Source: a virus (taxonomy: Duplodnaviria; Caudoviricetes). From it: 64,000 bases of DNA. This document shows, piece by piece, positions 19,829 through 63,799 of the stretch. The DNA is taken from positions 1 to 64,000 of IMG/VR virus record IMGVR_UViG_3300021387_000141; one strand, written 5' to 3'. The notes beneath the pieces are model-generated. The model did no database searches. It was not told where the DNA came from and saw nothing but the letters and a program-made list of their open reading frames with translations. Every line of letters begins with the position of its first letter. The stretch's first letter is position 1. The translations under genes were made by a program, and so were the position numbers.

Positions 19829-19885
19829 TTGTAATAAAAAGCGTAAGCATTGCTTGCGCTTTTATTTTTTACGAAAGGAAACAAA

Positions 19886-22212: not shown

Positions 22213-22266
22213 AGAGACAGACAGTCTCTCTTTATTTTTTCAAAAAAGGAACGAAAGGAAAATATT

Positions 22267-32515: not shown

Positions 32516-32536
32516 TTTGAAACGAAAGGGAAACAA

Positions 32537-33055
32537 ATGATTCGATTTTTCAGAGTAAGCGACGAACAGTTGAAACGCGATTGGGAAAAATTGCACTGGC
32601 CGATGACCGACGAAAACAGTCTGGAAGATGCGGTCTTCCGGATGCCGACACGAGCCACGATGGACAGCGCCGGGTATGATATTTTCGCCCCGATCAACCT
32701 GCTGCTGCGGGCCGGAGAATCCATGACCATCCCTACCGGATGGAAAGTGGCTTTGCCGACCGGATCATTTTTGATGCTGGTCCCGCGGTCGGGGCTGGGG
32801 TTCAAATATCAGATCGGTCTGGCAAACACCGTCGGGATCATTGATGCTGATTATTATGATAATCCCGACAACGAAGGCCACATCATGGTGAAACTGGTCA
32901 ACCGCGGAGATAAAGACTGCCGGATCTATGCCGGAAAAAACGCGATCTGCCAGGGGATCATTCTGGATTATTTGATCACAGATGATGATTTCCCCGGAAA
33001 AGATATTCGCGCCGGCGGATTCGGTTCGACGGATGTGATTAAGGAGAACTTATGA
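32537..33055 (+). CDS. dut: Trimeric dUTPase
   Basis: Motifs SAGYDI, PRSGLG, GIIDADY, CQGI, RAGGFGST. Confidence 0.92.
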   Translation: MIRFFRVSDEQLKRDWEKLHWPMTDENSLEDAVFRMPTRATMDSAGYDIFAPINLLLRAGESMTIPTGWKVALPTGSFLMLVPRSGLGFKYQIGLANTVGIIDADYYDNPDNEGHIMVKLVNRGDKDCRIYAGKNAICQGIILDYLITDDDFPGKDIRAGGFGSTDVIKENL

Positions 33056-40710: not shown

Positions 40711-40743
40711 TTAATAAAAAGAGTCCGCAAGGGCTCTTATTTT

Positions 40744-40769: not shown

Positions 40770-40816
40770 AGAGGACACGGATGATCCTCTTATTATTTTT
40801 AAAAAAGGAGATAATT

Positions 40817-41356: not shown

Positions 41357-41402
41357 TTATGAAAGCCCTAACAAGGGCTATTTATTTTTTTCTGAGGAGC
41401 CA

Positions 41403-41606: not shown

Positions 41607-41608
41607 TA
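41583..41608 (+). promoter_or_regulatory. Phage promoter-like motif
   Basis: tcgc gatatga aca aagcct ttaata. Confidence 0.65.
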
Positions 41609-41742
41609 GAGAAAGAGAAAGGTCGTAAGGACGCATCAAAGGACTGAACACCCATTGATGAACGGATCACTGTCAAAGTTCAGGGCAGTATTCGTACAAG
41701 AGGGAATTACGGCCCCTTGAGTATCAGGTACTTTTATTTTTT
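41609..41742 (+). ncRNA. Candidate non-coding cassette RNA
   Basis: Between two promoter motifs, no well-spaced RBS-ATG; stems ctgaac/gttcag, gtc-gtaag-gac, caag.ggg/ccc.cttg; ends in a T run. Confidence 0.35.
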
Positions 41743-41745
41743 CAA

Positions 41746-41771
41746 TCGCGATTTAAACAGCTCCTTTAATG
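41746..41771 (+). promoter_or_regulatory. Phage promoter-like motif
   Basis: tcgc gatttaa aca gctcct ttaatg. Confidence 0.75.
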
Positions 41772-41815
41772 AAGAGAGACAAGCAGTCTCTCTAATTTTT
41801 TAAAGGAGATAAAAA

Positions 41816-42052
41816 ATGAAAAAGATTAATTTAATTTATGGATGCATTCTGCATCCAGAAAAAAATGTCGTAAAAATTATTGCCGGCAAAATTCTGTCGG
41901 CTTTGATTGGATACAAAATTTGGGGCGTTTTTGCCTCAAACAAACGGTGCTATGCATTTGGCACCAAAAAACAGGCGATTAATTTCGCCAAAGCAATCTG
42001 GGATTGTAATGGACACAATCCTGTAATAGTAGTGGAACAACACTACTATTAA
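41816..42052 (+). CDS. Small hypothetical protein (cassette ORF)
   Basis: RBS aaaggag. Confidence 0.7.
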   Translation: MKKINLIYGCILHPEKNVVKIIAGKILSALIGYKIWGVFASNKRCYAFGTKKQAINFAKAIWDCNGHNPVIVVEQHYY

Positions 42053-42066
42053 ATAAAAATTTAAAA

Positions 42067-42090
42067 AGGAGTCTTACAAAGACTCCTGAA
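42067..42090 (+). terminator. Terminator-like hairpin duplicated at 42361
   Basis: aggagtct-tacaa-agactcct, identical copy at 42362-42382. Confidence 0.6.
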
Positions 42091-42102
42091 TTTCGTGTAG
42101 AT

Positions 42103-42128
42103 TCGCAAAATTTACAGCTCCTTTAATG
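42103..42128 (+). promoter_or_regulatory. Phage promoter-like motif
   Basis: tcgc aaaattt aca gctcct ttaatg. Confidence 0.75.
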
Positions 42129-42170
42129 AAGAGAGACAAGCAGTCTCTCTAAATTTTTAAGGAGATAAAA

Positions 42171-42356
42171 ATGGAAGTTTTAAAAACAGAACAGCTCCCT
42201 GATGGGAGCAAAAAGTATTATTTTGTGGATGGTACATCGACCATCCTGTCTAAGGAATTTCTCGCACGTTGCGAGAAAATTAGTCGGAAAAACCCGTCCG
42301 TTGGACGGAAGAACGCGAATTGCCCCAGAATGAGGGCAATAGTTGTAAATAAATAA
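42171..42356 (+). CDS. Small hypothetical protein (cassette ORF)
   Basis: RBS aaggag. Confidence 0.7.
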   Translation: MEVLKTEQLPDGSKKYYFVDGTSTILSKEFLARCEKISRKNPSVGRKNANCPRMRAIVVNK

Positions 42357-42431
42357 AAATAAGGAGTCTTACAAAGACTCCTAAAATTTTTGTTATACTT
42401 GTTTCATAGAAAAGGAGCAAAAGATGTAGAA

Positions 42432-42713
42432 ATGATTAATAAATGGCTATGTTGTTTACTTGTTTTAATTGCATTTGGGTTAGGAGCATTGCTTGTTGCA
42501 ATATATCATAAAAAAGCATATGAAAAAGGCGTTCAGGATGGAAAGAATCTTGTCATGAATGAATGGGTTCAATATATGACCCCGGAAGAAGTGATAGATA
42601 TTTGCCATGAATTTTTGGAAGATGATGATCATTGTCCTTTACTATTAATTCGACCGGATAAATACGATTATATTGATGGTCATGGTGAAGGCATACAAAA
42701 GATATTTCAATAA
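42432..42713 (+). CDS. Membrane-anchored hypothetical protein
   Basis: WLCCLLVLIAFGLGALLVAIY. Confidence 0.65.
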   Translation: MINKWLCCLLVLIAFGLGALLVAIYHKKAYEKGVQDGKNLVMNEWVQYMTPEEVIDICHEFLEDDDHCPLLLIRPDKYDYIDGHGEGIQKIFQ

Positions 42714-42783
42714 ACCTCATACTCACTGATCTTTAGAACAGCTCGCATTACGCGGGCTTTTTTATTTAATCGAAAGGAAACAA

Positions 42784-43638
42784 ATGACTAGTTTTATCTC
42801 TATGCTGGGCGGCGCGGATGCCAAATCGATCGAAGCCAAATTCAATGATATTTCTGAGAATCTGAACGTGCTTTCTTCCAGAATTGCTGAGCTGGATGCA
42901 GTTGTGACTAAGCTGGACAAATACACGATGAATCTGGAAGCCGGTATTCGCAATAACGAGATCTGCTGCACTGAACTGAAGCAAAAATACAGCAGCGAAG
43001 GCCTGACCAAGCGGGTTGATGACGTCGATCGCATGGTCCGGTATTTCCAATCCTCTCACGGCAAGGTACTGAATGATATTCGGGACCTGAAAAAGGAACT
43101 CCATGGTTTGTACGGACGCCAGTGCCCGCCCCCACAGGAAGAACTGGATAAATCCATCGCGAAGGACAACAGCGAGATCCTGCTGAGTGATATTATTACG
43201 AACCTGATTCCGGAATACCATGAACGCGGATGTGTATTAAAAGCCATGAAACGAAATGGTTGGAAGACCGTTTCCGATCTGCTGGCGGTTCCTTATTCTC
43301 AGCTTCCGGACAGGCCATGGCTCGGTAAGAAAGTCCTTGCAGTTTTTCAGTGCATTTACGAACAATACGGGAAGATCGACCCGAAGGCCGTATCGGATGA
43401 TATTCCGGACACGGATCTGAAAAAGGCAATCTTTGACATGGAAGGCAGCACCAAGACCAAATCCAGGGTCTATAACATGCTGAAAAAAGAGGGCATTTTT
43501 ACGCTTGAACAGCTGGCGCAGAAATCCTTGCTGCAGTTATGCACGGATCATCCCGATTTTCGTAAAGGCCGTGCAGGCGATCTTTTGTCGGCTGTTTATA
43601 CCAAATACATCTGGACCGAAGGAGAAAAGGATGCGTAA
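42784..43638 (+). CDS. Coiled-coil protein with two C-terminal RNAP alpha-CTD-like domains
   Basis: CVLKAMKRNGWKTVSDLLAVPYSQL..RPWLGKK and RVYNMLKKEGIFTLEQLAQKSLLQL. Confidence 0.65.
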   Translation: MTSFISMLGGADAKSIEAKFNDISENLNVLSSRIAELDAVVTKLDKYTMNLEAGIRNNEICCTELKQKYSSEGLTKRVDDVDRMVRYFQSSHGKVLNDIRDLKKELHGLYGRQCPPPQEELDKSIAKDNSEILLSDIITNLIPEYHERGCVLKAMKRNGWKTVSDLLAVPYSQLPDRPWLGKKVLAVFQCIYEQYGKIDPKAVSDDIPDTDLKKAIFDMEGSTKTKSRVYNMLKKEGIFTLEQLAQKSLLQLCTDHPDFRKGRAGDLLSAVYTKYIWTEGEKDA

Positions 43639-43879
43639 TTTTTTCAAAGGCTTTTGGGAATATCTCAAAAACTGGGCATGGTCTTTGTTTGCCATGGCTT
43701 TATGGATGTTCGTCGGGATCGTGATCAGCTTGTTTTGTGTCTGGTACGGAATTATCGGCACCGGACCGGTGTTTATGATTGACCCCAAATTCATTGATTT
43801 TCTCCGGGAAGCTGCCGACAAAAGTGAGGAGCTCCGAAAGAAACGTTTAGAAGAGGAAATTGAAAATGAAGAAAATTAA
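43631..43879 (+). CDS. Membrane protein
   Basis: WAWSLFAMALWMFVGIVISLFCVWYGII. Confidence 0.65.
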   Translation: MRNFFKGFWEYLKNWAWSLFAMALWMFVGIVISLFCVWYGIIGTGPVFMIDPKFIDFLREAADKSEELRKKRLEEEIENEEN

Positions 43880-44090
43880 AAGCTATTTAAGAAACTGGAT
43901 GGATTTTCTGACTATGAGCTTTCTATTGTTTGTCCTAAGTTTCATGGACTTCATCACTGGATTTTTTGCTGCACTTACCAACAATCAGGGCTGGTGGTAT
44001 CGTATAGTTCATATTTATAAAAATATGGGTGATCGTATGTATGCGGTTATGGAAAAGGAGAAGGAAGATGGAAACGATGAAACCATTTGA
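43866..44090 (+). CDS. Membrane protein
   Basis: FLTMSFLLFVLSFMDFITGFFAAL. Confidence 0.6.
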   Translation: MKKIKSYLRNWMDFLTMSFLLFVLSFMDFITGFFAALTNNQGWWYRIVHIYKNMGDRMYAVMEKEKEDGNDETI

Positions 44091-44475
44091 TTTTTGGGTC
44101 GAATACGGTCCTGAAGGCAAACTTCAGACAATCAGCTTTATGGATATTTCATTGACCGATGCTTTATCGGCGCTCCTTTTTTTGAAAAACACGGAACCCT
44201 GTGATTCAGAACCCAACCCGGAAGCCCGTCCGAAATCGATTTTTGAAAACCCGATGGTGGCGGTTAAAGACTACATCGGAAAGTATCCCGTTTGCTATTT
44301 TACGCCGCAGGGTCAGTATTTTGAAGTCAAGACTTATTTACCGAAAGATAAAGGCTGGATCTGCCATTTGATGACCTATACCGGAAACGATAACGACGGT
44401 TATCGCTGGTACCATGCCGATGACAGCATTTATATTTACGATGCTTATCTCACATTGGTTCGTAAGGAGGGGTAA
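44068..44475 (+). CDS. Hypothetical protein
   Basis: RBS aaggag; intact ORF. Confidence 0.65.
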   Translation: METMKPFDFWVEYGPEGKLQTISFMDISLTDALSALLFLKNTEPCDSEPNPEARPKSIFENPMVAVKDYIGKYPVCYFTPQGQYFEVKTYLPKDKGWICHLMTYTGNDNDGYRWYHADDSIYIYDAYLTLVRKEG

Positions 44476-44759
44476 TGGAACCTACAATGATTGCTGTATC
44501 CGGCGAGGAATCCCGGATCATTTCGATCGAAGATCAATATTATGTGATCACCGATTACAAAACTGCCGCGGACATGGAAGAAGAAAACTGGCACGCATTC
44601 AAAGTCGTGCGCTTTAATAATTCCTGGTGGCAGCCGCAGCTGAACGAGCGGTATTTGATCAACCGGGAAACGCTGGAGATCACGGACGATCCCCGGGAAT
44701 ATTATGAAGAGCCGGTTATTCCGGATGAACCTGTTGAAGAAGAGGAGCCCAATGAATAG
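44475..44759 (+). CDS. Hypothetical acidic protein
   Basis: RBS aaggagg; TAATG coupling. Confidence 0.7.
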   Translation: MEPTMIAVSGEESRIISIEDQYYVITDYKTAADMEEENWHAFKVVRFNNSWWQPQLNERYLINRETLEITDDPREYYEEPVIPDEPVEEEEPNE

Positions 44760-45063
44760 TTATCTGATCGCAGCCTGTGTTCCGTTAGCTGTTTTGGTAT
44801 TAGAACTGTTAAGTGAACAATACAACCTTCGGAAAAAGAATCGTGAAATATCGGAAGATATTTTTAATATCAGTTCTGAAATGACAGATTTGAGAATGTT
44901 TTATGACCGGCAGCAGAAAGAGCTGACGAAATTGCGCGCAGAGCTGGAAAAAGTCAGCAATGAACTCGTTGGGACGAAAGAGATGATCACCCAGATGCAG
45001 GAGAACTACGGCCGGTTTTTCGGCGACGCGCAGATCGAAGGACAGTATAAACTTCACTTTTAA
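44752..45063 (+). CDS. Membrane-anchored coiled-coil protein
   Basis: RBS aggag; YLIAACVPLAVLVL then coiled coil. Confidence 0.65.
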   Translation: MNSYLIAACVPLAVLVLELLSEQYNLRKKNREISEDIFNISSEMTDLRMFYDRQQKELTKLRAELEKVSNELVGTKEMITQMQENYGRFFGDAQIEGQYKLHF

Positions 45064-45064
45064 T

Positions 45065-45090
45065 TCGCAGGATTTACAAAGCCTATATTG
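45065..45090 (+). promoter_or_regulatory. Phage promoter-like motif
   Basis: tcgc aggattt aca aagcct atattg. Confidence 0.75.
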
Positions 45091-45136
45091 AGCAGACATG
45101 GATGATCTGCTCTTTATTTTTAAATAGGAGAAAAAA

Positions 45137-45355
45137 GTGGAAACTATTGTTGTAGTTTGTGCTGTTGTCGCTACTGCGACATTTGTTGTTAAAACAATCG
45201 TTTCCTGGATTAAATCCGGGAAATACGAAAAGGAAGCGGCTTTGCGCCGCAAAGAAAATGAAACGCGAAGGGCGACCTTCGCAGAAGCCAGGCTGAACCG
45301 CCTGGAAGAAAAACTGAAAGAAAAAGAAAATGTCAATGAGGACATTGATTGGTAA
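45137..45355 (+). CDS. Small membrane-anchored protein (cassette ORF, GTG start)
   Basis: IVVVCAVVATATFVV; RBS aggag; terminator gagtccgcaagggctc follows. Confidence 0.7.
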   Translation: METIVVVCAVVATATFVVKTIVSWIKSGKYEKEAALRRKENETRRATFAEARLNRLEEKLKEKENVNEDIDW

Positions 45356-45437
45356 ATGAAAAGAGAGTCCGCAAGGGCTCTTATTTTTTTCAATCGCTGG
45401 CTGACCACAAGTCACCAGCCACTAAAGGAGAAATCTT

Positions 45438-45599
45438 ATGTCTAAAACTTTGAAAACTGTATTGTTCGGCATTTTTGGCCTGGTCGTTGTCGGTGTGTTG
45501 GGTTATGGGATCTACAGCTACGCCACCCATACCGGATATTTTGCTCCGGCAGAAACGGAAGTAACGGAAACGGTCGAAGAAGTAGAAATCAGCGAATAA
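45438..45599 (+). CDS. 53-aa membrane protein with acidic tail (not in ORF track)
   Basis: RBS aaaggag; MSKTLKTVLFGIFGLVVVGVLGYGIYSY...ETEVTETVEEVEISE. Confidence 0.7.
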   Translation: MSKTLKTVLFGIFGLVVVGVLGYGIYSYATHTGYFAPAETEVTETVEEVEISE

Positions 45600-45602
45600 A
45601 GA

Positions 45603-45628
45603 TCGCGATATGCGCATGGCCTCTAATG
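45603..45628 (+). promoter_or_regulatory. Phage promoter-like motif
   Basis: tcgc gatatgc gca tggcct ctaatg. Confidence 0.75.
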
Positions 45629-46222: not shown

Positions 46223-46240
46223 TTAGTGAAAGGAAACAAA

Positions 46241-46720
46241 GTGGAATATTCTAAAAAAGAGATCACAGCAAAAGATAAGATCAAAAAATTAATGGACTAT
46301 GTACAAGCTGCGCAGGAGTTTACAAACCAATTGATCAATTATTTAAAGGGGATCGACTGCATGACTCACAACAGCGAAGGCGTTTACGCGGATGAGATTG
46401 AAGAAAGCGAACTGCACGGTTTTGACTGGGATGACGGTCACGCTTATTTAGCTACGGATTTTACCATTGATGAACTTCCGGAAGCTTTAGCCTCTATCAG
46501 CAATGACATGGATGAAAAAATACGGGATCTTGAAGAAAAAGATCGAATGAATGACGCATATCGAAAGATCTATACTTATTTTAAAAATGATCCGTCCTTA
46601 TGTTTCAGTTCTGTTTCAGAAACAAAACTGAAGGAATTTTATCATGTCTGCCTGAACATTGCCGAAATGTCGGAAAGCAAATTCATTGAAAATGTTTTTG
46701 AAGCGCAGAAAGGAAAATAA
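46241..46720 (+). CDS. Hypothetical acidic protein (GTG start)
   Basis: RBS gaaagga 6 nt upstream. Confidence 0.65.
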   Translation: MEYSKKEITAKDKIKKLMDYVQAAQEFTNQLINYLKGIDCMTHNSEGVYADEIEESELHGFDWDDGHAYLATDFTIDELPEALASISNDMDEKIRDLEEKDRMNDAYRKIYTYFKNDPSLCFSSVSETKLKEFYHVCLNIAEMSESKFIENVFEAQKGK

Positions 46721-52748: not shown

Positions 52749-52830
52749 GAGAGAAGTAGATATTACATCGACTTTTCGGTTTTGTCTTACAAGACTTTTT
52801 GAGACCATGAACACATGGCCTCTTCTTTTT

Positions 52831-52997
52831 TAAGAACAGCGTTTGTCCGCTTTCCACTTTTCAGCCCACTTCCAATGTTTGGCTTAATCGTGCTAACGAC
52901 CTTTTTCATTTTTACTCCTTTCAAATAGATGAATCCTTCTAAATAATCAACATTTTCCGCTCCGGACGTAAGTGGAAGGCGGATGAGCGCTGTTCTT
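52831..52997 (+). ncRNA. Long stem-loop RNA 1 (28-bp helix, loop antisense to phage RBS/start regions)
   Basis: 52831-52858 pairs with 52970-52997 at all 28 positions (4 G.U). Confidence 0.7.
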
Positions 52998-53020
52998 ATT
53001 TTTTAACAGGAGGAGCTATA

Positions 53021-53311: not shown

Positions 53312-53846
53312 AGGCCGCCATGCATTTTTAGGTGCGAGCAAATACCATTGGATCAACTATGACGAAAGCAAGATCGCTGAAGCATACCGAAATGACCTGG
53401 CAAAAGAACGCGGAACCATATTGCATGATTTTGCTTCCCAGTGTATTCGGCTGAACCAGCGTCTGCCGAAATCCTCGCAGACATTGAACATGTTTGTGAA
53501 TGACGCGATCGGCTATAAGATGCGTTCCGAACAGCCGCTATATTTCAGCGAGAACTGTTTCGGGACCGCGGATGCGATCTGTTTTCGGAAGAACCTGCTG
53601 CGCATCCATGACCTGAAGACCGGTTTCACACCGGCGCATATGGAGCAGCTCTATATTTACAATGCGCTATTTTGCCTTGAGTACCATTTCGATCCGCATG
53701 AGATCGAGACCGAACTTCGTATTTATCAGTCGAATGAGGTCTTATGTGAAGAACCGGATCCGGACAATATTTCTGAAATTATGGAAAAGATCAAAGCTTT
53801 TGACAAAATTTTACGAGATATTCAGCTGAAGGAGAGTGAAGCCTGA
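53283..53846 (+). CDS. PD-(D/E)xK (Cas4/DUF2800-like) exonuclease
   Basis: RGTILH...SEQPLY...FGTADAI...IHDLKTG...QLYIY. Confidence 0.75.
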   Translation: MNFNVHSNLEGRHAFLGASKYHWINYDESKIAEAYRNDLAKERGTILHDFASQCIRLNQRLPKSSQTLNMFVNDAIGYKMRSEQPLYFSENCFGTADAICFRKNLLRIHDLKTGFTPAHMEQLYIYNALFCLEYHFDPHEIETELRIYQSNEVLCEEPDPDNISEIMEKIKAFDKILRDIQLKESEA

Positions 53847-56655
53847 TATGAGCAATAGTACAGCAATTAATATTTTAATTACCATGGCTAAGAAAGCCAA
53901 AAACCCGACGGTCAAGGATATTTTGCTTAGCGCAGCGGACATGAGCGATTCCGATTTTATTATGCATTACGGAACAAAGCGTCACTCCGGACGATATCCC
54001 TGGGGTTCAGGCGACAATCCATATCAGCATGAAATCGATTTTTTGAATCGTGTCCGCAAGATGCGGAACAAGGGATATTCCGAACTGACCATTGCAAAGA
54101 AGTGCGGATATTCTACGACCAGCGAACTGCGTTCCGCAGTCCGTTCGGCCAATAATGACATTTCTCAATATCGTATCCAGTGGGCCAACCAGTTATTAAA
54201 AGATGGCTTGACCCAGACCGAAGCCGCCCGGCGCATGGATATTCCGGAATCGACATTTCGTTCGATCATGGACAAACAGCGACAGGCCCGCGCTAATAAA
54301 GCGCAGTCGACTGCTAATTTTCTGAAATCCGTTGTTGACGAACGCGGCCCGATCGATATTGGTGCCGAAGTCAACCGTGAATTGAATATTTCCAACGAGA
54401 AACTGACACAGGCAGTCGATATTTTAAAGAAGCAGGGTTATGAAGTCCGTGTCGGTTCCATGCCTCAGGTAACGAATGAGCATGGCCAGCGGACGACCCT
54501 TAAAATTTTATGTCCTCCCGGATCTCCGAAGAACCAGGCATATTTGTATGACGATATTTCTCCGTTATTTGACTATGCCAAAGAATATTCTTCTTCCGAT
54601 GGAGGCAAAACTTTCGATAAATTCGAATATCCTGCATCCATGGACTCCAAAAGAATATTTGTCCGATATTTGGAAGACGGCGGTGCGGACCGTGACGGAT
54701 TAATTGAACTCCGCCGCGGTGTTGAGGATTTATCGCTCGGCGGTTCCCGATATTCTCAAGTCCGAATATTAGTGGACGGGAATAAATATATGAAAGGAAT
54801 GGCCGTATATTCCGACAATATTCCGGATGGCTACGATGTTATTTACAACAGCCGTAAGTCCAGGGAAAAGGGCGAAGACCCGTTTAAGGATATTAAAAAA
54901 GATGACCCGACGAACCCCTTCGGTTCCTATATTTCACCAAGGGGTCAGAGCCATTATATTGACTCGAAGACCGGAGAACGAAAATTATCTCTGATCAATA
55001 AACGTGCCGACGAAGGCGACTGGAACGACTGGTCCAAGTCCCTGCCTTCCCAATTTTTGTCCAAGCAGAACAAGAAGCTGATCGAGAATCAGTTAAATTT
55101 GTCCATTGCTGACAAGATGGCCGAGTACGAGGATATTTGCAACCTGACCAACCCGACCGTAAAGCGCCGATTATTAGAGACCTTTGCTGAGGATTGTGAC
55201 GCGACTTCCGTCCATCTGGACGCGGCTGCCCTTCCCAGACAGCGCTATCAGGTTATTATTCCGCTGCCCTCCCTAAAGAAGGATCAAATTTATGCTCCGA
55301 ATTTTAAGGATGGCGAGAAAGTGGCTTTGGTCCGCTACCCTCATGGCGGGATTTTTGAGATCCCCGTCCTTACCGTAAATAACAAAAATCGGGAAGGGAT
55401 TTCTATATTATCTAAAAATCCGACCGACGCCGTAGGCATCAATATTGAGGCCGCCAAACAGCTGTCCGGCGCGGACTTTGACGGTGACACGGTCATGGTG
55501 ATCCCGTTATCCTCTAAGGTGCAGGTCTCTCACAGACCATATTTGGACGCCCTGAAAGGCTTCGACCCTGAAGTCGAATATCCGAAACGTGAAGGCATGA
55601 AGCCCATGCAGCGTACGGATATTGAGATGGGCAAGATCACCAATCTTATTATGGACATGACTCTTGCAGGCGCCCCTGAAGACGAGGTTGCCCGTGCCGT
55701 CAAGCACTCCATGGTTGTTATTGACGCCAAGAAGCACGAGCTTGACTGGCAGCTCTCTGAAGAACAGAACAAGATCAAGGAGCTGAAGGACAAGTATCAG
55801 GGCCACTATGATGAGAACGGCCGCTGGCGCCATGGTTCGGGTACCATCGTGACCCGTGCCAAGAGCCCGGAACGCGTCACCAAACGCCGTGGTGAGTTCG
55901 ACATCGATCCCGAGACAGGCAAGAAGATCTGGAAGGAAGCCTTCGATGCTCACTACGAAGACGCAAAGGGCAAGCCCAAGACGCGTACTCAGGAAAGCTA
56001 CCGAATGCTCGAGACCGATGACCCTTACAGTCTTGTCTCCGGCATGAACACGCAGACCGAACAGCTTTACGCCCGCTATGCGGCGCAGCTGAAAGCGCTG
56101 GCCAATCAGGCACGTAAAGAGTACAAGTACAACACGCCGAACCTGGAATACAGCCCTTCGGCTCACAAAGTGTACAAGAAGGAAGTCGATTCCCTCACTG
56201 AAAAGCTGCGCCAAAGCCGCTTGAACGCTCCCCGTGAACGTGAAGCGCAGCGCCGCGCCAATGTGCAGCTGGAACGGCTTTTTAAAGAAAATCCGGAACT
56301 CCGGGACGATAAAAAACAAAGAGGCAAATACGCTCAGCAATATTTGACCGCTGCCCGTGTGGCAGTAGGCGCTCAGCGCTATAAGATTGAGATCACGCCG
56401 GCCGAATGGACCGCGATCCAGGCCGGAGCAATATCTGACAGCCTGCTGAAGCAAATATTAGACGCAACGGACACCAATACGGTGCGCGAATACGCGACTC
56501 CGCGCAATTCAGACACCATGTCCAATGCTAAAAAAGCCAGATTATTTTCTCTTCGTCGTTCCGGTTACAGTAATGCGGAGATCGCAGACGCGCTCAATGT
56601 GCCTGTCTCGACGATCCTTTATTACGTACGCCAGGAAAAAGAAGGCAAACTCTAG
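53836..56655 (+). CDS. Putative single-subunit two-barrel (DPBB) DNA-dependent RNA polymerase with terminal HTH domains
   Basis: LSGADFDGD (55468-55488) catalytic loop preceded by LVRYP; QVRI..KG; HSMVVIDAKKH; HTHs TQTEAARRMDIPESTFRS and SNAEIADALNVPVSTI. Confidence 0.72.
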   Translation: MKPDMSNSTAINILITMAKKAKNPTVKDILLSAADMSDSDFIMHYGTKRHSGRYPWGSGDNPYQHEIDFLNRVRKMRNKGYSELTIAKKCGYSTTSELRSAVRSANNDISQYRIQWANQLLKDGLTQTEAARRMDIPESTFRSIMDKQRQARANKAQSTANFLKSVVDERGPIDIGAEVNRELNISNEKLTQAVDILKKQGYEVRVGSMPQVTNEHGQRTTLKILCPPGSPKNQAYLYDDISPLFDYAKEYSSSDGGKTFDKFEYPASMDSKRIFVRYLEDGGADRDGLIELRRGVEDLSLGGSRYSQVRILVDGNKYMKGMAVYSDNIPDGYDVIYNSRKSREKGEDPFKDIKKDDPTNPFGSYISPRGQSHYIDSKTGERKLSLINKRADEGDWNDWSKSLPSQFLSKQNKKLIENQLNLSIADKMAEYEDICNLTNPTVKRRLLETFAEDCDATSVHLDAAALPRQRYQVIIPLPSLKKDQIYAPNFKDGEKVALVRYPHGGIFEIPVLTVNNKNREGISILSKNPTDAVGINIEAAKQLSGADFDGDTVMVIPLSSKVQVSHRPYLDALKGFDPEVEYPKREGMKPMQRTDIEMGKITNLIMDMTLAGAPEDEVARAVKHSMVVIDAKKHELDWQLSEEQNKIKELKDKYQGHYDENGRWRHGSGTIVTRAKSPERVTKRRGEFDIDPETGKKIWKEAFDAHYEDAKGKPKTRTQESYRMLETDDPYSLVSGMNTQTEQLYARYAAQLKALANQARKEYKYNTPNLEYSPSAHKVYKKEVDSLTEKLRQSRLNAPREREAQRRANVQLERLFKENPELRDDKKQRGKYAQQYLTAARVAVGAQRYKIEITPAEWTAIQAGAISDSLLKQILDATDTNTVREYATPRNSDTMSNAKKARLFSLRRSGYSNAEIADALNVPVSTILYYVRQEKEGKL

Positions 56656-56669
56656 AAAGGAGCTCAATC

Positions 56670-56987
56670 ATGGAGAAAGATCAGACCTGTTACCTGACAA
56701 CGTTCGACAATCCGTTCAATCCTGACACACAGTTCGATCTATGGTTGGACTTCGACATCGATCACGGCTATTACAGCTGCGCTTACCTGGATCGGATCGC
56801 CAAGATCAGTCCCGCAATGAGCGAGATCGAGAAGGAACTGGAGATTGAACGCGCGATTGACGAGATCATCAAATATGACTTCCGAAATATATACACAAAA
56901 ATATACGTAAAAAAACAAAATGACACCCCCGTTGTTGATGACGACGAGGATTTTGACAAATTAATTGACCGCAGCCATTACGCATAA
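56670..56987 (+). CDS. Conserved-type phage hypothetical protein
   Basis: RBS aaggag; LTTFDNPFNPDTQFDLW..FD..HGY. Confidence 0.75.
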   Translation: MEKDQTCYLTTFDNPFNPDTQFDLWLDFDIDHGYYSCAYLDRIAKISPAMSEIEKELEIERAIDEIIKYDFRNIYTKIYVKKQNDTPVVDDDEDFDKLIDRSHYA

Positions 56988-56992
56988 AATAG

Positions 56993-57070
56993 ACACACCC
57001 CGGGGGGATAGGCGAAAATCCCACCCCCTCCCCCAATCGCGGGGGTCTCCAAAAATTCTCCGGGGGAGTT
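56993..57070. other. Putative genome terminus (cos-like) region
   Basis: Non-coding G/C homopolymer tracts (ccccggggggg, cccaccccctccccc, cgcgggggtct, ccggggg) between the RNAP operon and the packaging genes. Confidence 0.4.
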
Positions 57071-57133
57071 TTTTAGGACGCGTTTTATATTTTAGCGTGG
57101 TGTTAATAACTTTAGTAAAAAATTTATATTTGT

Positions 57134-57170
57134 AATAGCCCTTTGAAGAGTGATTCAAAGGGCTTTGTTT
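57134..57170. terminator. Hairpin upstream of packaging operon
   Basis: agccctttgaa-gagtga-ttcaaagggct, 11-bp perfect stem. Confidence 0.5.
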
Positions 57171-57206
57171 AATGAAAGAAAAGACAAATGGATATTTTAG
57201 AAGGAT

Positions 57207-57326
57207 TTAGAAAGTACTTTCAGGGGCTCAAGGTTTCCATTTGTTTCCTTTCGTTCCTAACATTATTCGTCTTATGATATGTGCTTGGTTTTTTCGTTGC
57301 TTTGAGCCTCTGAAAGTACTTTCTAA
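57207..57326 (+). ncRNA. Long stem-loop RNA 2 (26-27-bp helix, loop antisense to phage RBS/start regions)
   Basis: 57207-57232 pairs with 57301-57326 at all positions (2 G.U). Confidence 0.65.
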
Positions 57327-57351
57327 CAAAGGAAAAGAATGAGGTAAGCGT

Positions 57352-57696
57352 ATGAGAAAGAAAGAGAAAGACCTTGAAACTCCGGTAAAGCGAAAACAAA
57401 GGCCGGGAATGTCGGTCGAAGCTCGTGAAAATCAGCTCATTTCGCTTGCCGTTGATCTTGCTGAAAAACAATTATTGGAAGGAACAGCTTCGTCACAAGT
57501 AATTACACATTATTTGAAGCTTGGTTCTACAAAAGAACGATTAGAAAAAGAAATTTTAAAACAACAAAAAGAATTAATTGAAGCGAAGACTGAAGCTTTG
57601 CATTCATCGAAACGAATAGAAGAATTATATTCAAACGCATTGAATGCTATGCGGAATTATCGCGGTGACATTAATTCTGATGAAGATGAAGACTAA
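57352..57696 (+). CDS. Putative terminase small subunit
   Basis: First gene of the packaging operon; helical, ARENQLISLAVDLAEKQL..GTASSQVITHYLKLGS. Confidence 0.45.
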   Translation: MRKKEKDLETPVKRKQRPGMSVEARENQLISLAVDLAEKQLLEGTASSQVITHYLKLGSTKERLEKEILKQQKELIEAKTEALHSSKRIEELYSNALNAMRNYRGDINSDEDED

Positions 57697-58119
57697 ATGG
57701 ATACTCTGCGAACATATACAGAATTAATAAAACGTTCAACTTTTATGGATCGTTTTAATTATCTAAAACTGGATGGAAAAATCGGTGAAGATACTTTTGG
57801 ATTCGATCGATATTTGAATCAAATATTATATCGTTCTCCAGAATGGCGAAAAGTTCGGGACATTGTAATTGTCAGAGATAATGGAAATGATTTAGGATTG
57901 GAAGGTTTTCAGATCGGTAAAAAGAATCTGATTGTCCATCATATGAATCCGATCACGTATCATGATATTGTCCAAAAGAATGATGAGATCATGAACCCTG
58001 AATTTTTAATATGTGTATCCCGACTGACGCATCAAGCGATCCATTATGGTAATTTGGATCTTTTGCCAAAAGAACCAATAGAAAGATCATTGAATGATAC
58101 CTGCCCCTGGCGGCATTAA
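57697..58119 (+). CDS. HNH endonuclease (packaging-associated)
   Basis: W..VR..V..RD...IVHHMNPI...N..LICVS..THQAIH. Confidence 0.85.
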   Translation: MDTLRTYTELIKRSTFMDRFNYLKLDGKIGEDTFGFDRYLNQILYRSPEWRKVRDIVIVRDNGNDLGLEGFQIGKKNLIVHHMNPITYHDIVQKNDEIMNPEFLICVSRLTHQAIHYGNLDLLPKEPIERSLNDTCPWRH

Positions 58120-59082: not shown

Positions 59083-59646
59083 ATGGATTTTGACGAATTA
59101 AAACATTGGGGAATCTTTGGTATGAAATGGGGCGTCCGTCGTTATCAAAATGAAGACGGCTCTTTGACAGATGAAGGGCGGGAACATTATAATGTCGGCC
59201 CTGCTAGAACCAAAGGCTATGAACGAGCAGAAGGCAATTTTAATAGAAATCGTTCTGATAATTATAACATTTCTAAAAAAAATAAGAGCTCTATATTTGA
59301 TTCTAAAAACAAAAAACAAAAATTGCCGGAATTAATGTCAGATGATGAATTGTTTAAGATGACAAAAAGATTTAAAAGCCAGGCAAATTTTTATAATGCG
59401 CAAAATGACTATATAAAAAGTAAAGCATATAATGCTGAACTCACCAAAAAGAAAAGCAAATTAGGACAATTTTTAAATAAAATATTAGTCCAACCCGCAG
59501 AAAATGTATTATCAAGAAGTGTTGAATTTGGATTATCTGTAAGTACTGCGGCCTTTCTGGATTCTATAGATTCAAAATATGCAGATGATTATACAAAATT
59601 TGTTCTAAAAAGTGGTAATAAAAATAAAAAGAAAGATGATGATTAA
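59083..59646 (+). CDS. ELxHxG..GMKWG (DUF7211-like) tagged protein 1
   Basis: MDFDELKHWGIFGMKWGVRRYQNEDGSLTDEGREHY. Confidence 0.75.
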   Translation: MDFDELKHWGIFGMKWGVRRYQNEDGSLTDEGREHYNVGPARTKGYERAEGNFNRNRSDNYNISKKNKSSIFDSKNKKQKLPELMSDDELFKMTKRFKSQANFYNAQNDYIKSKAYNAELTKKKSKLGQFLNKILVQPAENVLSRSVEFGLSVSTAAFLDSIDSKYADDYTKFVLKSGNKNKKKDDD

Positions 59647-59651
59647 TTATT

Positions 59652-61382
59652 ATGCTTTCAAATACCGCTACACCACGTTATTACGGCGAATTTCGTCAGA
59701 AAGTTTTGCGGGGTGAAATACCGGTTCCAAAAACCATAGAAATGGAAATGAATCGGATCGATGATCTGATTCGAAACCGTGGAATTTATTATGATGATCA
59801 AGCCGTAGAAGGATTTATTCGTTATTGTGAAAATGAATTGACATTAACGGATGGATCTGATCTGAAATTATTAGACACTTTTAAACTTTGGGCAGAACAA
59901 ATTTTTGGTTGGTATTATTTCGAAGAGCATTCTATTTACGATCCCAAAAAGAAAAGATATGTAAACCGCCGAATAAAGAAACGCCTTGTAAATAAGCAAT
60001 ATTTAATCATTGCCCGTTCGGCTGCTAAATCTTTATATGCATCCTCAATCCAAAGTTATTTTTTAACGGTTGATACGACAACTACGCACCAAATTACGAC
60101 CGCTCCAACGATGAAACAGGCAGAAGAAGTTCTTTCGCCGATTCGTACTGCGATCAGCAGATCCAGAGGGCCTTTATTTTCATTTTTAACAGAAGGCTCT
60201 ATTCAAAATACGACCGGATCCAAAATGGACCGGGTGAAATTGGCGGCAACAAAAAAGGGTGTCGAGAATTTTTTGACCGGATCCCTACTTGAAGTTCGTC
60301 CGATGAGCATTTCGAAACTTCAAGGACTTCGCTGTAAAATCGCGACGGTTGATGAATGGCTTTCCGGTGATATTCGTGAGGATGTGATCGGTGCAATCGA
60401 ACAGGGTGCTGCAAAAGTAGATGATTATTTGATCCTGGCAGTATCTTCAGAAGGAACTGTCCGAAATGGTGCCGGTGATACGATCAAGATGGAATTGATG
60501 GATATTCTCAAAGGAGAATATATTAATCCGCATGTTTCCATTTGGTATTATAAGCTTGACTCAATCGATGAAGTAAATCAACCGGAAATGTGGCCGAAAG
60601 CGAACCCGAATCTTGGCTATACCGTTAGTTACGAAACTTATCAGTTGGATAAAGAACGGGCTGAAAAAGCTCCGGCAGCCAGAAATGATATTTTGGCAAA
60701 ACGTTTTGGTATTCCGATGGAAGGATATACCTATTATTTTACTTATGAAGAAACACTTCCGCATCGTAAACGAGATTATTGGAATATGCCCTGCGCTATG
60801 GGTTGCGATCTGTCTCAGGGGGATGATTTTTGCGCTTTTACATTTTTATTCCCCTTACGCGGAGGAGCTTTTGGCATTAAAACCAGAAATTATATTTCTT
60901 CTACAACTTTAAATAAACTTCCTGCAGCTATGCGTATTAAATACGATAGCTTTATGAATGAAGGGTCTTTGATCGTATTAAATGGTCCGGTCTTAAATAT
61001 GATGGAAGTTTATGAAGACCTGGATGCGCATATTAATCGCTGTGGCTATGATATTCGCTGTGTTGGCTACGATCCCTATAATGCCCGGGATTTTATTGAA
61101 CGCTGGGCATCTGAAAATGGTCCTTATGGAATTGAGAAAGTAAAACAGGGCTCACGGACAGAATCTGTACCTTTGGGAGAATTAAAGAAACTTTCGGAAG
61201 AGCGAATGCTTTTGTTTGATGAAGACCTGATGACTTTTACTATGGGTAATTGTATTACGCTTGAAGATTCCAATGGTAATCGTAAATTATATAAGAAACG
61301 CTATGACCAGAAAATCGATGCTGTTGCGGCTATGATGGATGCTTATATAGCATTTAAACTGAATCGAGAATCTTTTGAATAA
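59652..61382 (+). CDS. terL: Terminase large subunit
   Basis: IARSAAKS Walker A; ATVDEW Walker B; VSSEG; nuclease GCDLSQGDD and KIDAVAAMMDA. Confidence 0.92.
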   Translation: MLSNTATPRYYGEFRQKVLRGEIPVPKTIEMEMNRIDDLIRNRGIYYDDQAVEGFIRYCENELTLTDGSDLKLLDTFKLWAEQIFGWYYFEEHSIYDPKKKRYVNRRIKKRLVNKQYLIIARSAAKSLYASSIQSYFLTVDTTTTHQITTAPTMKQAEEVLSPIRTAISRSRGPLFSFLTEGSIQNTTGSKMDRVKLAATKKGVENFLTGSLLEVRPMSISKLQGLRCKIATVDEWLSGDIREDVIGAIEQGAAKVDDYLILAVSSEGTVRNGAGDTIKMELMDILKGEYINPHVSIWYYKLDSIDEVNQPEMWPKANPNLGYTVSYETYQLDKERAEKAPAARNDILAKRFGIPMEGYTYYFTYEETLPHRKRDYWNMPCAMGCDLSQGDDFCAFTFLFPLRGGAFGIKTRNYISSTTLNKLPAAMRIKYDSFMNEGSLIVLNGPVLNMMEVYEDLDAHINRCGYDIRCVGYDPYNARDFIERWASENGPYGIEKVKQGSRTESVPLGELKKLSEERMLLFDEDLMTFTMGNCITLEDSNGNRKLYKKRYDQKIDAVAAMMDAYIAFKLNRESFE

Positions 61383-61391
61383 GGAGTTTTT

Positions 61392-62033
61392 ATGAATGAC
61401 TATGAATTGAAACATTATAGAACTCCGGGTTCAAAAAACGGAGTTCGCAAGTATCAAAATTATGATGGGACTTTGACGCCATTGGGTTATATACATTATG
61501 GTATAGAAAAAAACGGAAAAAGCTACAGCGGAAATAAAACATTAGAGAAAAAAAGCGGATGGAATACTGTTAAAACTATAAATAAATATAACCCAAGCCG
61601 TTTGCTTAGAGAACCTATTGATATAGCTATAAATATGCATGATGGTTCTAATATAAGAAAACGTAAAAATGTTACGGGCGGAGTATCTATTTCTAAAAAA
61701 GAAAATGATCAAACTGTACAAAATATACAGGAATCTTATAAACCCGTAGAGCAGCAATTAGAGAAAGCTGCACAAGAACATTATGACGGTGTTTATTTGT
61801 CAGATTTAATGAGTAATGCAAACCGTCAAATATTGGCAGCCGGTGATCAATTTGTTCATAGTCCTATCGTTAAAGAAAAAATGATACGAGGTGGTTTTAC
61901 TGAGTCATTGATTAGAGTAATTCAATATTTATCTAAAAATCCGGACGACTATTCTAAAAATAGATCCATTATAAAATCTCCGGCCTATTGGATGAACTTT
62001 GGTGGTAGACCAAGAATTAATCAAACACGATAA
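61392..62033 (+). CDS. ELxH-tagged (DUF7211-like) protein 2
   Basis: YELKHYRTPGSKNGVRKYQNYDGTLTPLG. Confidence 0.7.
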   Translation: MNDYELKHYRTPGSKNGVRKYQNYDGTLTPLGYIHYGIEKNGKSYSGNKTLEKKSGWNTVKTINKYNPSRLLREPIDIAINMHDGSNIRKRKNVTGGVSISKKENDQTVQNIQESYKPVEQQLEKAAQEHYDGVYLSDLMSNANRQILAAGDQFVHSPIVKEKMIRGGFTESLIRVIQYLSKNPDDYSKNRSIIKSPAYWMNFGGRPRINQTR

Positions 62034-62043
62034 AGGAGGTTAT

Positions 62044-62958
62044 ATGCTGGATTTAGTACATACAGATATTTATCCCAATGATGAATTGAAACATTGGGGT
62101 GTTTTAGGAATGAAATGGGGCATCCGGCGTTTTCAAAATCCAGATGGATCATTAACTCCTGAAGGAAGAGAAAGATATGGAGTTAAATCTGCTCATGAAG
62201 CCAGAAAATTATCTTATGCTAAAGAATATTTAGTATTAAAACAAAAGAAAAATAGAACAGAAAAAGAAAATGAACGACTTAAAATCCTTGAAAAAGGAAA
62301 AAAACATTTTGAAAGAAGTATTAATGATGCTGATTATTGGGAAAAAATGAAAGATAATTATAGCTTAGATGAATATGAAGACGCTTCACAGGCTTATCAA
62401 CAATATTTTAATTCTACTAATTATGGTAAAGGCATGAATGAAGCTAAAGCTTTAATGAGCATTCCTACGACTATAATTGGGGCTGCAATAGATGCCGGTG
62501 CTATTTATGCACAATTTAATCTCGGTTCGCCGGTCGCTTTTTATGGTATTCCAACTGCTTTAGGACTTGGAATAGGTGCTAATATTGGTGAATCAAAATA
62601 TGAAGAAAAGCATTTAGAAGAATTAAAGAAAGAATTAAATAGCAATAATACTAAAAATAAAAATTATGAGTTTGAAAAGCATATTGTTAAAAATCCTAAA
62701 AAAGAATTAAATGACTATCACAATAGGCTTGAAAAACGGAGAAAAAATTCAAATTCATCTTATTATCGTGATGCAACAGCTGTTAATTCAGCTGCTAAAA
62801 AGGCAATTGAAATAATAAATGAAGATAAAGCGTATTCAATGGTATTTTCAAACCCTAATTATTATTTAAATAACGGCCAATGGACATTTGAAGGTAAAAC
62901 ATATGGATCTGTAGATGGCCTTGTGAACGCTTTAATAAAAAGTGATGTTATAAAATAA
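62044..62958 (+). CDS. ELxH-tagged (DUF7211-like) protein 3 (start at ATG 62044)
   Basis: RBS aaggagg; DELKHWGVLGMKWGIRRFQNPDGSLTPEGRERY; internal hydrophobic Gly/Ala segment. Confidence 0.75.
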   Translation: MLDLVHTDIYPNDELKHWGVLGMKWGIRRFQNPDGSLTPEGRERYGVKSAHEARKLSYAKEYLVLKQKKNRTEKENERLKILEKGKKHFERSINDADYWEKMKDNYSLDEYEDASQAYQQYFNSTNYGKGMNEAKALMSIPTTIIGAAIDAGAIYAQFNLGSPVAFYGIPTALGLGIGANIGESKYEEKHLEELKKELNSNNTKNKNYEFEKHIVKNPKKELNDYHNRLEKRRKNSNSSYYRDATAVNSAAKKAIEIINEDKAYSMVFSNPNYYLNNGQWTFEGKTYGSVDGLVNALIKSDVIK

Positions 62959-62974
62959 ATCGGAGGAAATTCAT

Positions 62975-63799
62975 ATGTATAGTAATTATATGTATAGTAA
63001 TGCACCTGCATCCAGCCGCAGAGGTGGTGGATCCTGGGTTTATGTAAATGGAGAACTTTATCATTTTGGTATTAAAGGTATGAAATGGGGTGAACATCTT
63101 CCATTTACTGATTATTGGAAAGTTGGCAAGAATGCTTATGGCAATTATATGAAAAAAAACACAACAGTAGGATTTAATAAAGATGCTAACGGTGTAATGA
63201 CAACTTATAATAAAAAGCCTAGCAAGCTTAAAGCTTTTGGATATGCAGTCAATGCAGCTGGTACTTATGCTCGCAATCGAGCTCGTAATGATATTCGTCG
63301 TGCTAAAGACGCCGCTATAAATAAACGTAATGCTATTAACCAGAACATTCGATATAAAACCACAGACCGATATTATAGTAATTTAAATAATTTTTCAGAG
63401 GGCATGAAAAATATGCCGACGTCACATTTGGAAGAACGAATGGGGAAATTGCTAAATAGAGGCAATGATTATATTGAAGCTCTCAAACAGAATCCAAATA
63501 GCGGCATTGCAGTATTGAATTTGGCTATTAAAAATGCACAATTTAATGTACTGAATGGCATTAATAGTTTTCTTAAAAAAACAGGACTTGATAAAAAAGT
63601 AGATAAATTCTTAAGCAAATTCTTGGGTGAATCCAATGCTGTTAAAAGTGCTCGCTTAGCTGAAAAATCTGCTAATTTACCAAAGATTGGACCTACCAAC
63701 ACTCGGGGCTATGATCGTGCCGAAGCTGCTTCGCCAAGTTATACATTTGACACAAGAGTTAAACGAGCTGCTAAAAAACCTAAAGGTGTTTTAGTATAA
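62975..63799 (+). CDS. ELxH-tagged (DUF7211-like) protein 4, very basic
   Basis: GELYHFGIKGMKWG; Lys/Arg/Asn-rich body. Confidence 0.75.
   Translation: MYSNYMYSNAPASSRRGGGSWVYVNGELYHFGIKGMKWGEHLPFTDYWKVGKNAYGNYMKKNTTVGFNKDANGVMTTYNKKPSKLKAFGYAVNAAGTYARNRARNDIRRAKDAAINKRNAINQNIRYKTTDRYYSNLNNFSEGMKNMPTSHLEERMGKLLNRGNDYIEALKQNPNSGIAVLNLAIKNAQFNVLNGINSFLKKTGLDKKVDKFLSKFLGESNAVKSARLAEKSANLPKIGPTNTRGYDRAEAASPSYTFDTRVKRAAKKPKGVLV

Follow-up and report, generated by a model that had tools for sequence, protein, structure and literature searches.

The nearest functional precedents of the element described here are the c4 RNA of phages P1 and P7 (RF01695), sar of P22 and OOP of lambda. c4, which belongs to the immI operon, is processed from the operon leader, and its exposed sequences pair with ribosome-binding site (RBS) regions of phage mRNA and block translation. 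Here we describe a long hairpin at positions 57207-57326 of a 64,000-nucleotide stretch of viral DNA (hereafter the window), which is the first 64 kb of the 90,190-bp IMG/VR virus record IMGVR_UViG_3300021387_000141, a circular assembly with a 107-bp terminal repeat. The hairpin is real, conserved, structured and belongs to the + strand, and it probably controls translation. It resembles c4 in that it appears to lie in an operon leader and has a loop, predicted to be exposed, that is complementary to phage RBS regions. However, c4 is cut out by RNase P, whereas the family of the hairpin offers a duplex of 27-40 bp instead, and c4 addresses two specific sites in its own transcript, whereas the hairpin has a generic anti-Shine-Dalgarno (anti-SD) invariant and its best matches lie in the leaders of other operons. 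The c4 covariance model (RF01695) gave no hit at E<=10 in 56500-58000.

The C-rich loops of RsaE and RoxS belong to anti-SD pairing small RNAs (sRNAs) (PMC4409812, PMC5419742). Such sRNAs, among them also S. aureus RNAIII, the streptococcal csRNAs and Cuckoo CcsR/NfeR1, direct pyrimidine-rich apical loops against the SDs of several mRNAs, and the hairpin would be like them in this respect; the csRNAs and the window loop also share a correctly spaced anti-AUG. In S. aureus, RNase III cleaves sRNA-mRNA duplexes. The anti-SD sRNAs are host genes with a promoter and terminator of their own, whereas the hairpin sits in a phage leader, has a very long basal helix and lacks a terminator tail. Its motif (CUCCUUUC or UUCCUUUC) differs from UCCC of RsaE/RoxS and from CCUCCUCCC of Cuckoo, and no Rfam match links the hairpin to either. 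RNase III hairpins such as the T7 R sites, the lambda N-leader site and the 16S leader-trailer stalk form a long near-perfect duplex in an untranslated region, as is predicted here; the T7 R sites differ from the hairpin in their internal loops and in lacking a conserved anti-SD loop. The pre-16S stalk, which may resemble the hairpin, encloses an RNA whose 3' part carries CCUCCUUUC.

Start-associated sequences (SAS/ESAS) of cluster K mycobacteriophages were reportedly described by Pope et al. in 2011 as an SD-containing motif reused just ahead of the start codons of about a dozen genes in one phage. The likeness here is to the ACGAAAGGAAACAAATG leader cassettes, which are candidate targets, and not to the hairpin; we know of no antisense partner described for SAS. 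In phage T4, RegA and RegB shut off early messages at RBSs, with RegB cutting within GGAG and RegA binding initiation regions (PMC3014915). These two are proteins, whereas the agent proposed here is an RNA. No description of the hairpin element was found in the literature. New here are the strand test, the anatomy of the apical helix, the spread to actinobacterial phages and phage 1706, the mapping of the cohesive-end site (cos), the dissociation of the hairpin from cos and the family-wide shuffles.

Conservation of the hairpin as a plus-strand RNA

The stem described in the earlier note, 57207-57232 paired with 57301-57326 and containing two G.U pairs, is real and one pair longer, with the G.U pairs at 57224.57309 and 57232.57301 among the 27 pairs (Table 1); RNAfold adds a 28th pair, U.G. 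The + strand RNA folds at -46.1 kcal/mol (z -4.7), and none of 200 shuffled sequences folded as well, while the - strand folds at -36.7 kcal/mol. At the equivalent site of nearly every relative there is a long inverted repeat with arms of 25-42 nt and a loop of 37-123 nt. An ungapped repeat search showed that the arm sequences are unrelated between lineages and that pairing is kept. More than 50 distinct copies were found in related cos/HNH siphophages, which include uncultured gut and digester phages, Lactococcus phage 1706 and phages of Arthrobacter, Microbacterium and Curtobacterium.

In a 16-member subfamily, RNAalifold found 33 pairs, nine of them with compensatory changes. A covariance model (R1) built from this subfamily, of which the window is not a member, matches window positions 57202-57332 on the + strand with 34 bits (E 2.4e-4, a rough value owing to the short calibration) and gives no hit on the minus strand of the window. 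Of 89 sequences searched, most contain a + strand match to R1, among them the window, MT835495 and Breylor17. In the model-guided alignment of 92 matches, 92% of the cells are paired and changes on both sides occur in 33 of 33 pairs, a result as good as which was obtained in 0 of 500 shuffles; slid controls were 31-49% paired. This alignment was fitted to R1 and leans toward the structure, and the independent ungapped repeat search agrees with it. The covariation in related phages to which the earlier note had looked as a check is thus present.

The deviations from perfect pairing are strand-asymmetric. In 44 distinct stems scored with no credit for wobble, the mismatches were G.U on the + strand in 113 cases, A.C in 26 and other in 32; in 53 distinct aligned copies the counts were 227, 29 and 35. 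An A.C on the + strand is a G.U on the - strand, and a double-stranded DNA site for a protein would be expected to give the two at 1:1. The copies are related, so that a binomial p-value would overstate the G.U bias; the bias recurs lineage after lineage. Furthermore, the A>T skew of the genome gives no hint of a + strand C-to-T bias that would mimic the G.U excess. From the G.U/A.C asymmetry together with the covariation we conclude that selection acts on the + strand as a single strand, most simply a sense RNA. The earlier note had taken the G.U pairs of the window stem to favour a + strand RNA, which the whole family bears out.

A search of 56500-58000 against Rfam 15 returned no family; plant miRNA-precursor models matched below threshold (31 bits against a gathering score of 71) because the hairpin is long. 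By comparative sequence analysis, the hairpin family is a well-supported structured RNA that is uncatalogued in Rfam. Regardless of its function, this missing RNA family is of value for annotation as a marker of the start of the packaging operon.

Almost all copies contain the invariant octamer CUCCUUUC, which is the exact complement of the Shine-Dalgarno (SD) sequence GAAAGGAG and identical to the end of 16S rRNA. In most lineages CUCCUUUC lies in an apical loop of 13-16 nt closed by a short covarying helix of 4-5 bp (TCTTT/AAGGA, GCGTT/GGCGC, GCACT/AGTGT, CTGC/GCAG). The actinobacterial phages Breylor17, Shepard, Tenno, Qui, Circum, Camille and Yotsuba have kept CTCCTTTCAAGAG and have stems of 30-38 bp. 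The lineage of the window and its nearest relatives, L005 and L006, deviates in that its UUCCUUUC lies on the 5' side within a large loop; in the window this loop is 66 nt long and has no apical helix, which makes the window hairpin atypical for the family.

Complementarity of the loop to phage leaders

The loop of the window hairpin contains a 21-mer, CATTTGTTTCCTTTCGTTCCT, which reads as an anti-AUG (CAU), a 5-nt spacer and the anti-SD UUCCUUUC. It is the longest invariant block of the roughly 300-nt intergenic region shared by the window, L005 and L006, in which the arms differ by 4-5 substitutions. This comparison supports the view that the window loop is an anti-RBS sequence under purifying selection. 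The three complementarities of 16, 15 and 15 nt between the loop and phage leaders that the earlier note had listed are exact to the base, and its near matches at the dUTPase leader (32523) and at 46227 are present as well (Table 1). All three long complementarities fall on a single leader motif, (A)CGAAAGGAAAcaa(a)ATG; the duplex with the 42784 leader has an energy of -23.6 kcal/mol against a genome median of -14.2. The loop variant of this lineage, UUCCUUUC, matches the lineage's own leader cassette ACGAAAGGAAACAAATG, which has GGAA in place of GGAG.

The leader motif stands directly after terminator T-runs at 17160, 19872, 22252, 32523, 42771, 46227 and genome position 68797. At the six window sites and at 68797 the T-run is followed at once by the leader (A)CGAAAGGAAAcaaaATG. 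The genes behind would be expressible only by terminator read-through, because there is no room for a promoter, and this need hints either at a system of antitermination or at a polymerase insensitive to terminators.

The matches of the window loop exceed those of controls. When the loop flanks were shuffled with the 8-nt core kept, the three longest matches of the window summed to 46 against a mean of 30-31, and 0 of 300 shuffles reached that sum, so that the loop complementarity beats shuffled controls of the kind that the earlier note had called for. In a reversed-sequence control, one + strand match of at least 11 nt was found in the window against seven observed. In the close relative G001, a 90-kb genome, the same loop is complementary to leaders over 21, 17, 15, 14 and 14 nt, and the 17-mer pattern, with up to three mismatches allowed, has eight forward hits against none in the reversed control. 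The flank test was extended to 16 hairpins from 15 complete genomes: p<=0.05 was obtained for six (seven if G001 is scored on the TTCCTTTC motif) and p of 0.06-0.10 for five further hairpins, and the remainder had no signal. In six genomes, leaders with a perfect match of at least 10 nt belong to 40 of 348 genes in the cos-distal half and to 8 of 188 genes in the cos-proximal (late) half.

Position of the hairpin at the genome end

The hairpin stands before the packaging operon, as the earlier note had it: the genes of a 114-aa protein, an HNH endonuclease, a connector protein and the terminase large subunit (TerL) follow. The location near a genome end that the same note gave is also right in physical terms; the record is circular, and the contig ends of relatives place a cos cut at 57037/57047, with a 9-nt 3' overhang, CGCGGGGGT. 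The linear genome of G001 (90,166 bp) ends in ...cccccaat and starts with ctccaaaa, so that exactly CGCGGGGGT is missing, which is the outcome expected from end-repair of a 3' overhang. Many contigs among 80 IMG/VR relatives stop 200-290 nt upstream of the 114-aa gene, at the motif c(c/t)t(a/c)aaaaattctccggggg, and in contigs L010 and L019 an Illumina adapter remnant (..tcttccgatct) is fused directly to the physical left end. The same cos motif opens three genomes with determined ends, those of Streptomyces phage Rima, Lactococcus phage 1706 and Arthrobacter phage Breylor17, and 1706-type phages have 3' overhangs of 9-10 nt (PMC4110766). With cos at 57038-57046, the hairpin begins 160 nt inside the left end; it lies 25 nt upstream of gene 57352. 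The cos region is conserved at 56996-57094. This mapping is of annotation value in that it places the physical ends (cos, 9-nt 3' overhang) for the window phage and for many related metagenomic phages.

For most relatives, the repeat stands between cos and the first gene and begins 40-60 bp from the left end. The Arthrobacter phages have the hairpin 300-550 bp from the end, and in Camille and Yotsuba it lies 1.9-2.1 kb from the end, directly upstream of the 114-aa gene. In L016 and L017 it lies across cos, on the opposite side, and Rima has kept the cos motif and has no hairpin. The first gene downstream is a different one in 1706, Qui, Tenno, L009, L041 and L060. The distance to the start codon is 22-90 nt (200 nt in Qui), always ahead of the first gene of an operon. 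The common denominator of the hairpin copies is an operon leader, usually that of the packaging operon. In Curtobacterium phage Yotsuba (L125), a tRNA-like 3' half (..ggttcgaatc..) lies between the hairpin and the 114-aa gene at about 2030-2120.

Proposed mechanism and alternative explanations

As a class of mechanism, anti-RBS base pairing is likely. The best-supported reading for the window phage, which we put forward tentatively, is that the hairpin acts as an RNase III-released, trans-acting anti-RBS RNA. The strand-specific structural selection and the position suggest that a + strand RNA is made within the 5' leader of the packaging (late) operon, and its late expression is inferred from position. 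Host RNase III would then cut the long duplex and free the upper hairpin, as the length of the helix suggests: an unbroken RNA duplex of 27-28 bp (25-42 bp in the family), with G.U as its only wobbles, is longer than the roughly 20 bp that mark an RNase III substrate and would be of the kind that this enzyme cuts. Copies across the family share a long, nearly perfect basal helix (25-42 bp) and a loop of exposed pyrimidines that holds the RBS complement, and they usually have a short apical helix that covaries. The freed loop (CAU, 5 nt, UUCCUUUC) could pair with the leaders ACGAAAGGAAACAA(A)ATG at 17-47 kb, those of genes 42784, 22267, 19886, 46241 and 32537. Such pairing, for which the complementarity and its conservation are shown, would cover both the SD and the start codon and so lower translation. 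The trans model is favoured for the window because the strongest partners of the loop are leaders of other operons. The earlier note had proposed that the RNA silences one RBS class of early/middle genes. Complementarity to a leader class does exceed shuffled sequences, but the targets are not only early in all lineages, and silencing of such a class may apply to the window lineage only.

A wider version of this model is possible, if doubtful: the cos/HNH siphophages of Firmicutes and Actinobacteria would encode an RNA counterpart of T4 RegA/RegB at the head of the late operon. A hairpin excised by RNase III, with a loop that mimics the 3' tail of 16S rRNA, would occupy the RBSs of earlier phage messages and possibly of host messages too and so switch translation to the late genes, and the loop would co-evolve with the phage's own leader cassettes. 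The phages concerned include 1706, a dairy phage, together with many Arthrobacter and Microbacterium phages from SEA-PHAGES. If true, an RNA that copies the mRNA-docking sequence of the ribosome would constitute a common, unrecognised layer of temporal control via translation shut-off, and its reach would extend to siphophages, temperate and virulent alike, that infect Gram-positive bacteria and form a very large group. The hairpin is present in culturable, tractable phages (Lactococcus 1706; Arthrobacter Breylor17, Circum and Qui; Microbacterium Camille), in which it is directly testable.

Several observations weigh against a trans-acting anti-RBS RNA. The window hairpin lacks the apical helix of its family, and neither a sigma-70-type nor a phage-type promoter was found between cos and the long hairpin. 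For the hairpins of G005, G006 and G011 and for a second hairpin copy in the window, matches to their own leaders are no better than those of shuffled flanks. Flank shuffling also disrupts T-runs, which pair with the A-rich spacers of any RBS, and part of the significance of the shuffle test therefore reflects the antisense of a generic RBS and not particular genes. The enrichment of targets away from the late region is only about 2.7-fold, starts outside that region may simply own stronger stand-alone RBSs, and the best loop duplexes in G003 and G005 include late genes. All that the family guarantees throughout is a generic 8-nt anti-SD, which would not tell one mRNA from another, and the extended matches could reflect an inverted copy of a reused leader cassette in the loop.

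Among the alternatives, a purely cis-acting leader survives best, and we regard it as unlikely. The anti-SD loop would pair with the RBS of the first gene, and removal by RNase III would activate or stabilise the late mRNA, in the manner of the RNase III sites of T7 and the N leader of lambda. The consistent position of the hairpin 22-90 nt (200 nt in Qui) ahead of the first gene of an operon fits such a role, and the same loop could also act in this way: 57238-57251 can pair at 12-13 of 14 positions with 57328-57341, which adjoins the SD of gene 57352. This partner is missing in L005 and L006, despite their invariant loop 21-mer. Pairing with an invariant RBS, GAGAGGAGGCAGUAAGGAUG, is possible for the invariant loop blocks of the canonical subfamily (UCUUUC..CUCCUUUC), and the leader of the phage's own gene ranks 8th of 67 by duplex energy in G002, 9th of 75 in G004 and 3rd of 73 in G005. 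In contrast, the own leader is worse than foreign ones in the window lineage, and a permutation test of own against foreign leaders (-0.8 kcal/mol; own better in 62% of 50 copies) gave no signal of co-evolution. Furthermore, it would be sterically awkward for a loop some 30 bp away to reach an SD 10-20 nt beyond the base of the stem.

A protein-mediated RNA element seems less probable again. It would be either a nut/put-like antitermination site, bound by NusB/S10 or by the 114-aa protein, or purely a site of RNase III processing or stability. The antitermination version combines the long helix with the boxA-like CUCCUUUCAA and read-through of many internal terminators; the genome does contain many terminators that are followed at once by an RBS and require read-through, and both hairpin copies of the window head long operons, but the terminators found beside these two copies lie upstream of them and not downstream. 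CUCCUUUCAA(G)A is at best a weak and partial match to boxA (UGCUCUUUAACAA in E. coli). The loop flank CAAGAG/CAAAGG is shared by phages of Firmicutes and of Arthrobacter, Microbacterium and Curtobacterium, a conservation that tracking of a phage's own leaders would not need. On the other hand, the invariant octamer matches the SD complement exactly and, in the window lineage, has changed in step with the SD variant of the leaders. The neighbouring 114-aa protein begins with a tail that is disordered and rich in Arg/Lys, yet its gene occurs without a hairpin in Rima, Artorias and ReqiPoco6.

It is very improbable that the repeat is a DNA packaging site, in which cosB-like inverted sites for terminase or HNH endonuclease would flank a bendable pyrimidine tract beside cos. 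Lambda cosB, too, is situated between a cohesive end and the first gene for packaging and has inverted elements, as the repeat does in most relatives, and phage-specific arms could mirror co-evolving protein specificity. Unlike cosB, however, the hairpin has a strand-asymmetric G.U pattern (113:26 and 227:29) that is not expected from a double-stranded DNA site, a second copy 4.2 kb away, and a distance to cos that varies from about 40 bp to 2.1 kb, with the order reversed in L016; these features point to RNA rather than DNA. The fixed cos-adjacent position and the symmetric constraint on both strands that characterise a cosB-type site were not found, and Rima has the cos motif without the hairpin. 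Each arm contains the palindrome GAAAGTACTTTC, as the earlier note had pointed out, and its alternative of a protein-binding palindrome near the genome end is disfavoured: GAAAGTACTTTC is not kept in L005 and L006 and was rejected as an operator or functional unit.

Least credible of all is a function of the minus strand, on which the loop would serve as a real RBS for a minigene (METLSP in the window, the case that the earlier note had set against its own proposal) or as a ribosome-binding stabiliser of an antisense transcript: the loop does read there as a complete RBS, with an ATG at the right distance in the window (six codons), L005 and L006 and a start codon 3-10 nt past the SD in about half of the relatives, but a minigene is unlikely because many lineages lack any start codon, the peptides of 3-20 residues are unrelated (METLSP, MLL, MSL, MNKSTL, MKGRRRST) and structural selection is on the + strand, and the flanking genes and terminators are all on the + strand with only weak promoter-like sites on the other. 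A minus-strand promoter composed of TTGAAA in the motif and a downstream TATAAT-like box was likewise rejected, as few relatives fit and GAAAGGAG is conserved whereas the TTG is not.

Second hairpin copy, surrounding features and neighbouring genes

The window contains a second hairpin of the same type 4.2 kb from cos, between a terminator at 52797-52830 and the first gene of its operon. Its loop carries ACTCCTTTCAAA at 52913-52924 and the canonical ACUCCUUUCAAA, and the sequence after it is TTATTTTTT. In G001 (86047-86246) the long stem of this second copy has been lost and the motif is kept ahead of a terminator. The second hairpin lies downstream of a compact promoter-like motif, TCGCGAAATTTACAnCTCCTnTAAT, at 52723. 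About 22 copies of this motif are on the + strand (27 hits against 7.6 expected), with sites at 10973-22211, 39473-45627 and 52723 of the window, and no copy was found upstream of the packaging operon. Because its spacing is unfit for sigma-70, the motif may serve the phage's own 939-aa RNA polymerase-like protein.

Table 1 Coordinates of the hairpins, candidate target leaders and neighbouring features in the window.
Feature	Position	Strand	Remarks
Long hairpin, 5' arm	57207..57233	+	27 pairs with 57300-57326
Long hairpin, 3' arm	57300..57326	+	Partner of 57207-57233
Hairpin loop, 66 nt	57234..57299	+	Mostly unpaired in predicted fold
Anti-RBS 21-mer	57238..57258	+	Invariant in window, L005 and L006
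Leader CGAAAGGAAACAAATG of gene 42784-43638, best candidate target	42771..42786	+	16-nt exact complement of 57238-57253
Leader of gene 22267-22719, candidate target	22247..22261	+	15-nt exact complement of 57244-57258; -24.2 kcal/mol
Leader of gene 19886-20251, candidate target	19871..19885	+	15-nt exact complement of 57240-57254; -22.1 kcal/mol
Leader of gene 46241-46720 (GTG start), candidate target	46228..46240	+	13-nt exact complement
Leader of dUTPase-like gene 32537-33055, candidate target	32523..32539	+	Leader motif with one mismatch; -22.4 kcal/mol
Inferred cos overhang, 9 nt, 3' protruding	57038..57046		Physical ends at 57037 and 57047
Intrinsic-terminator-like hairpin	57137..57170	+	11-bp stem and TTGTTT; between cos and long hairpin
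Second hairpin, same type	52831..52998	+	29-bp arms, 110-nt loop; heads endonuclease/exonuclease/RNA polymerase operon
114-aa conserved protein	57352..57696	+	phrog_4259; first gene after hairpin
HNH endonuclease of cos-packaging module	57697..58119	+	phrog_4321, E 5e-57
TerL	59652..61382	+	phrog_9, E 1.5e-109; Pfam TerL_nuclease and TerL_ATPase

The sequence directly 3' of the arm of the long hairpin is CAAAGGAAAAG, which has no U-run of an intrinsic terminator; inspection of the sequence after the 3' arm showed no terminator tail of the hairpin's own. A terminator scan around the hairpin reported solely a separate small terminator (57137-57164), which has counterparts of other sequence at the same place in L005 and L006. 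An attenuator in which this terminator would alternate with the long hairpin was rejected, as the likeness of the arms is confined to the window and absent in L005 and L006. The arms were also considered as ends of a miniature inverted-repeat transposable element or transposon, which was rejected, as no further copies of them exist in the genome. A 29-codon open reading frame (ORF) at 57189-57278 (+), MDILEGFRKYFQGLKVSICFLSFLTLFVL, with a hydrophobic tail and a leader-like SD, extends across the 5' arm as far as the loop; L005 and L006 lack it, and it is probably due to chance.

Upstream of the hairpin are the genes of a 105-aa protein and of the 939-aa RNA polymerase-like protein (53836-56655, phrog_4291). 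Homologues of the 114-aa protein downstream occur in 241 phage records, usually among the first genes at the left end and almost always beside an HNH endonuclease, and 37 residues are invariant in 27 sequences. The N-tail of the protein is disordered and rich in Lys/Arg, its C-tail is acidic and its helices lie at 22-43 and 48-108; AlphaFold predicts a helical hairpin (predicted local distance difference test, pLDDT, 78). It had no Pfam match, no PDB sequence hit and no Foldseek hit at E<=0.001. It is possibly a small-terminase-like packaging protein, and neither this nor an RNA-binding role can be assigned. A two-codon ORF, NTG-AGG-TAA (57339-57347), overlaps the SD of gene 57352, with ATG, GTG and TTG as first codon in the window, L005 and L006, respectively; the two codons may form a start-stop element to which the 114-aa gene is coupled. 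Several head-module proteins (59083-63799) share an N-terminal DUF7211 tag (ELxHYGxxGMKWG), and in L009, at about 2260, a DUF7211-tagged protein and not the 114-aa protein is the first after the hairpin.

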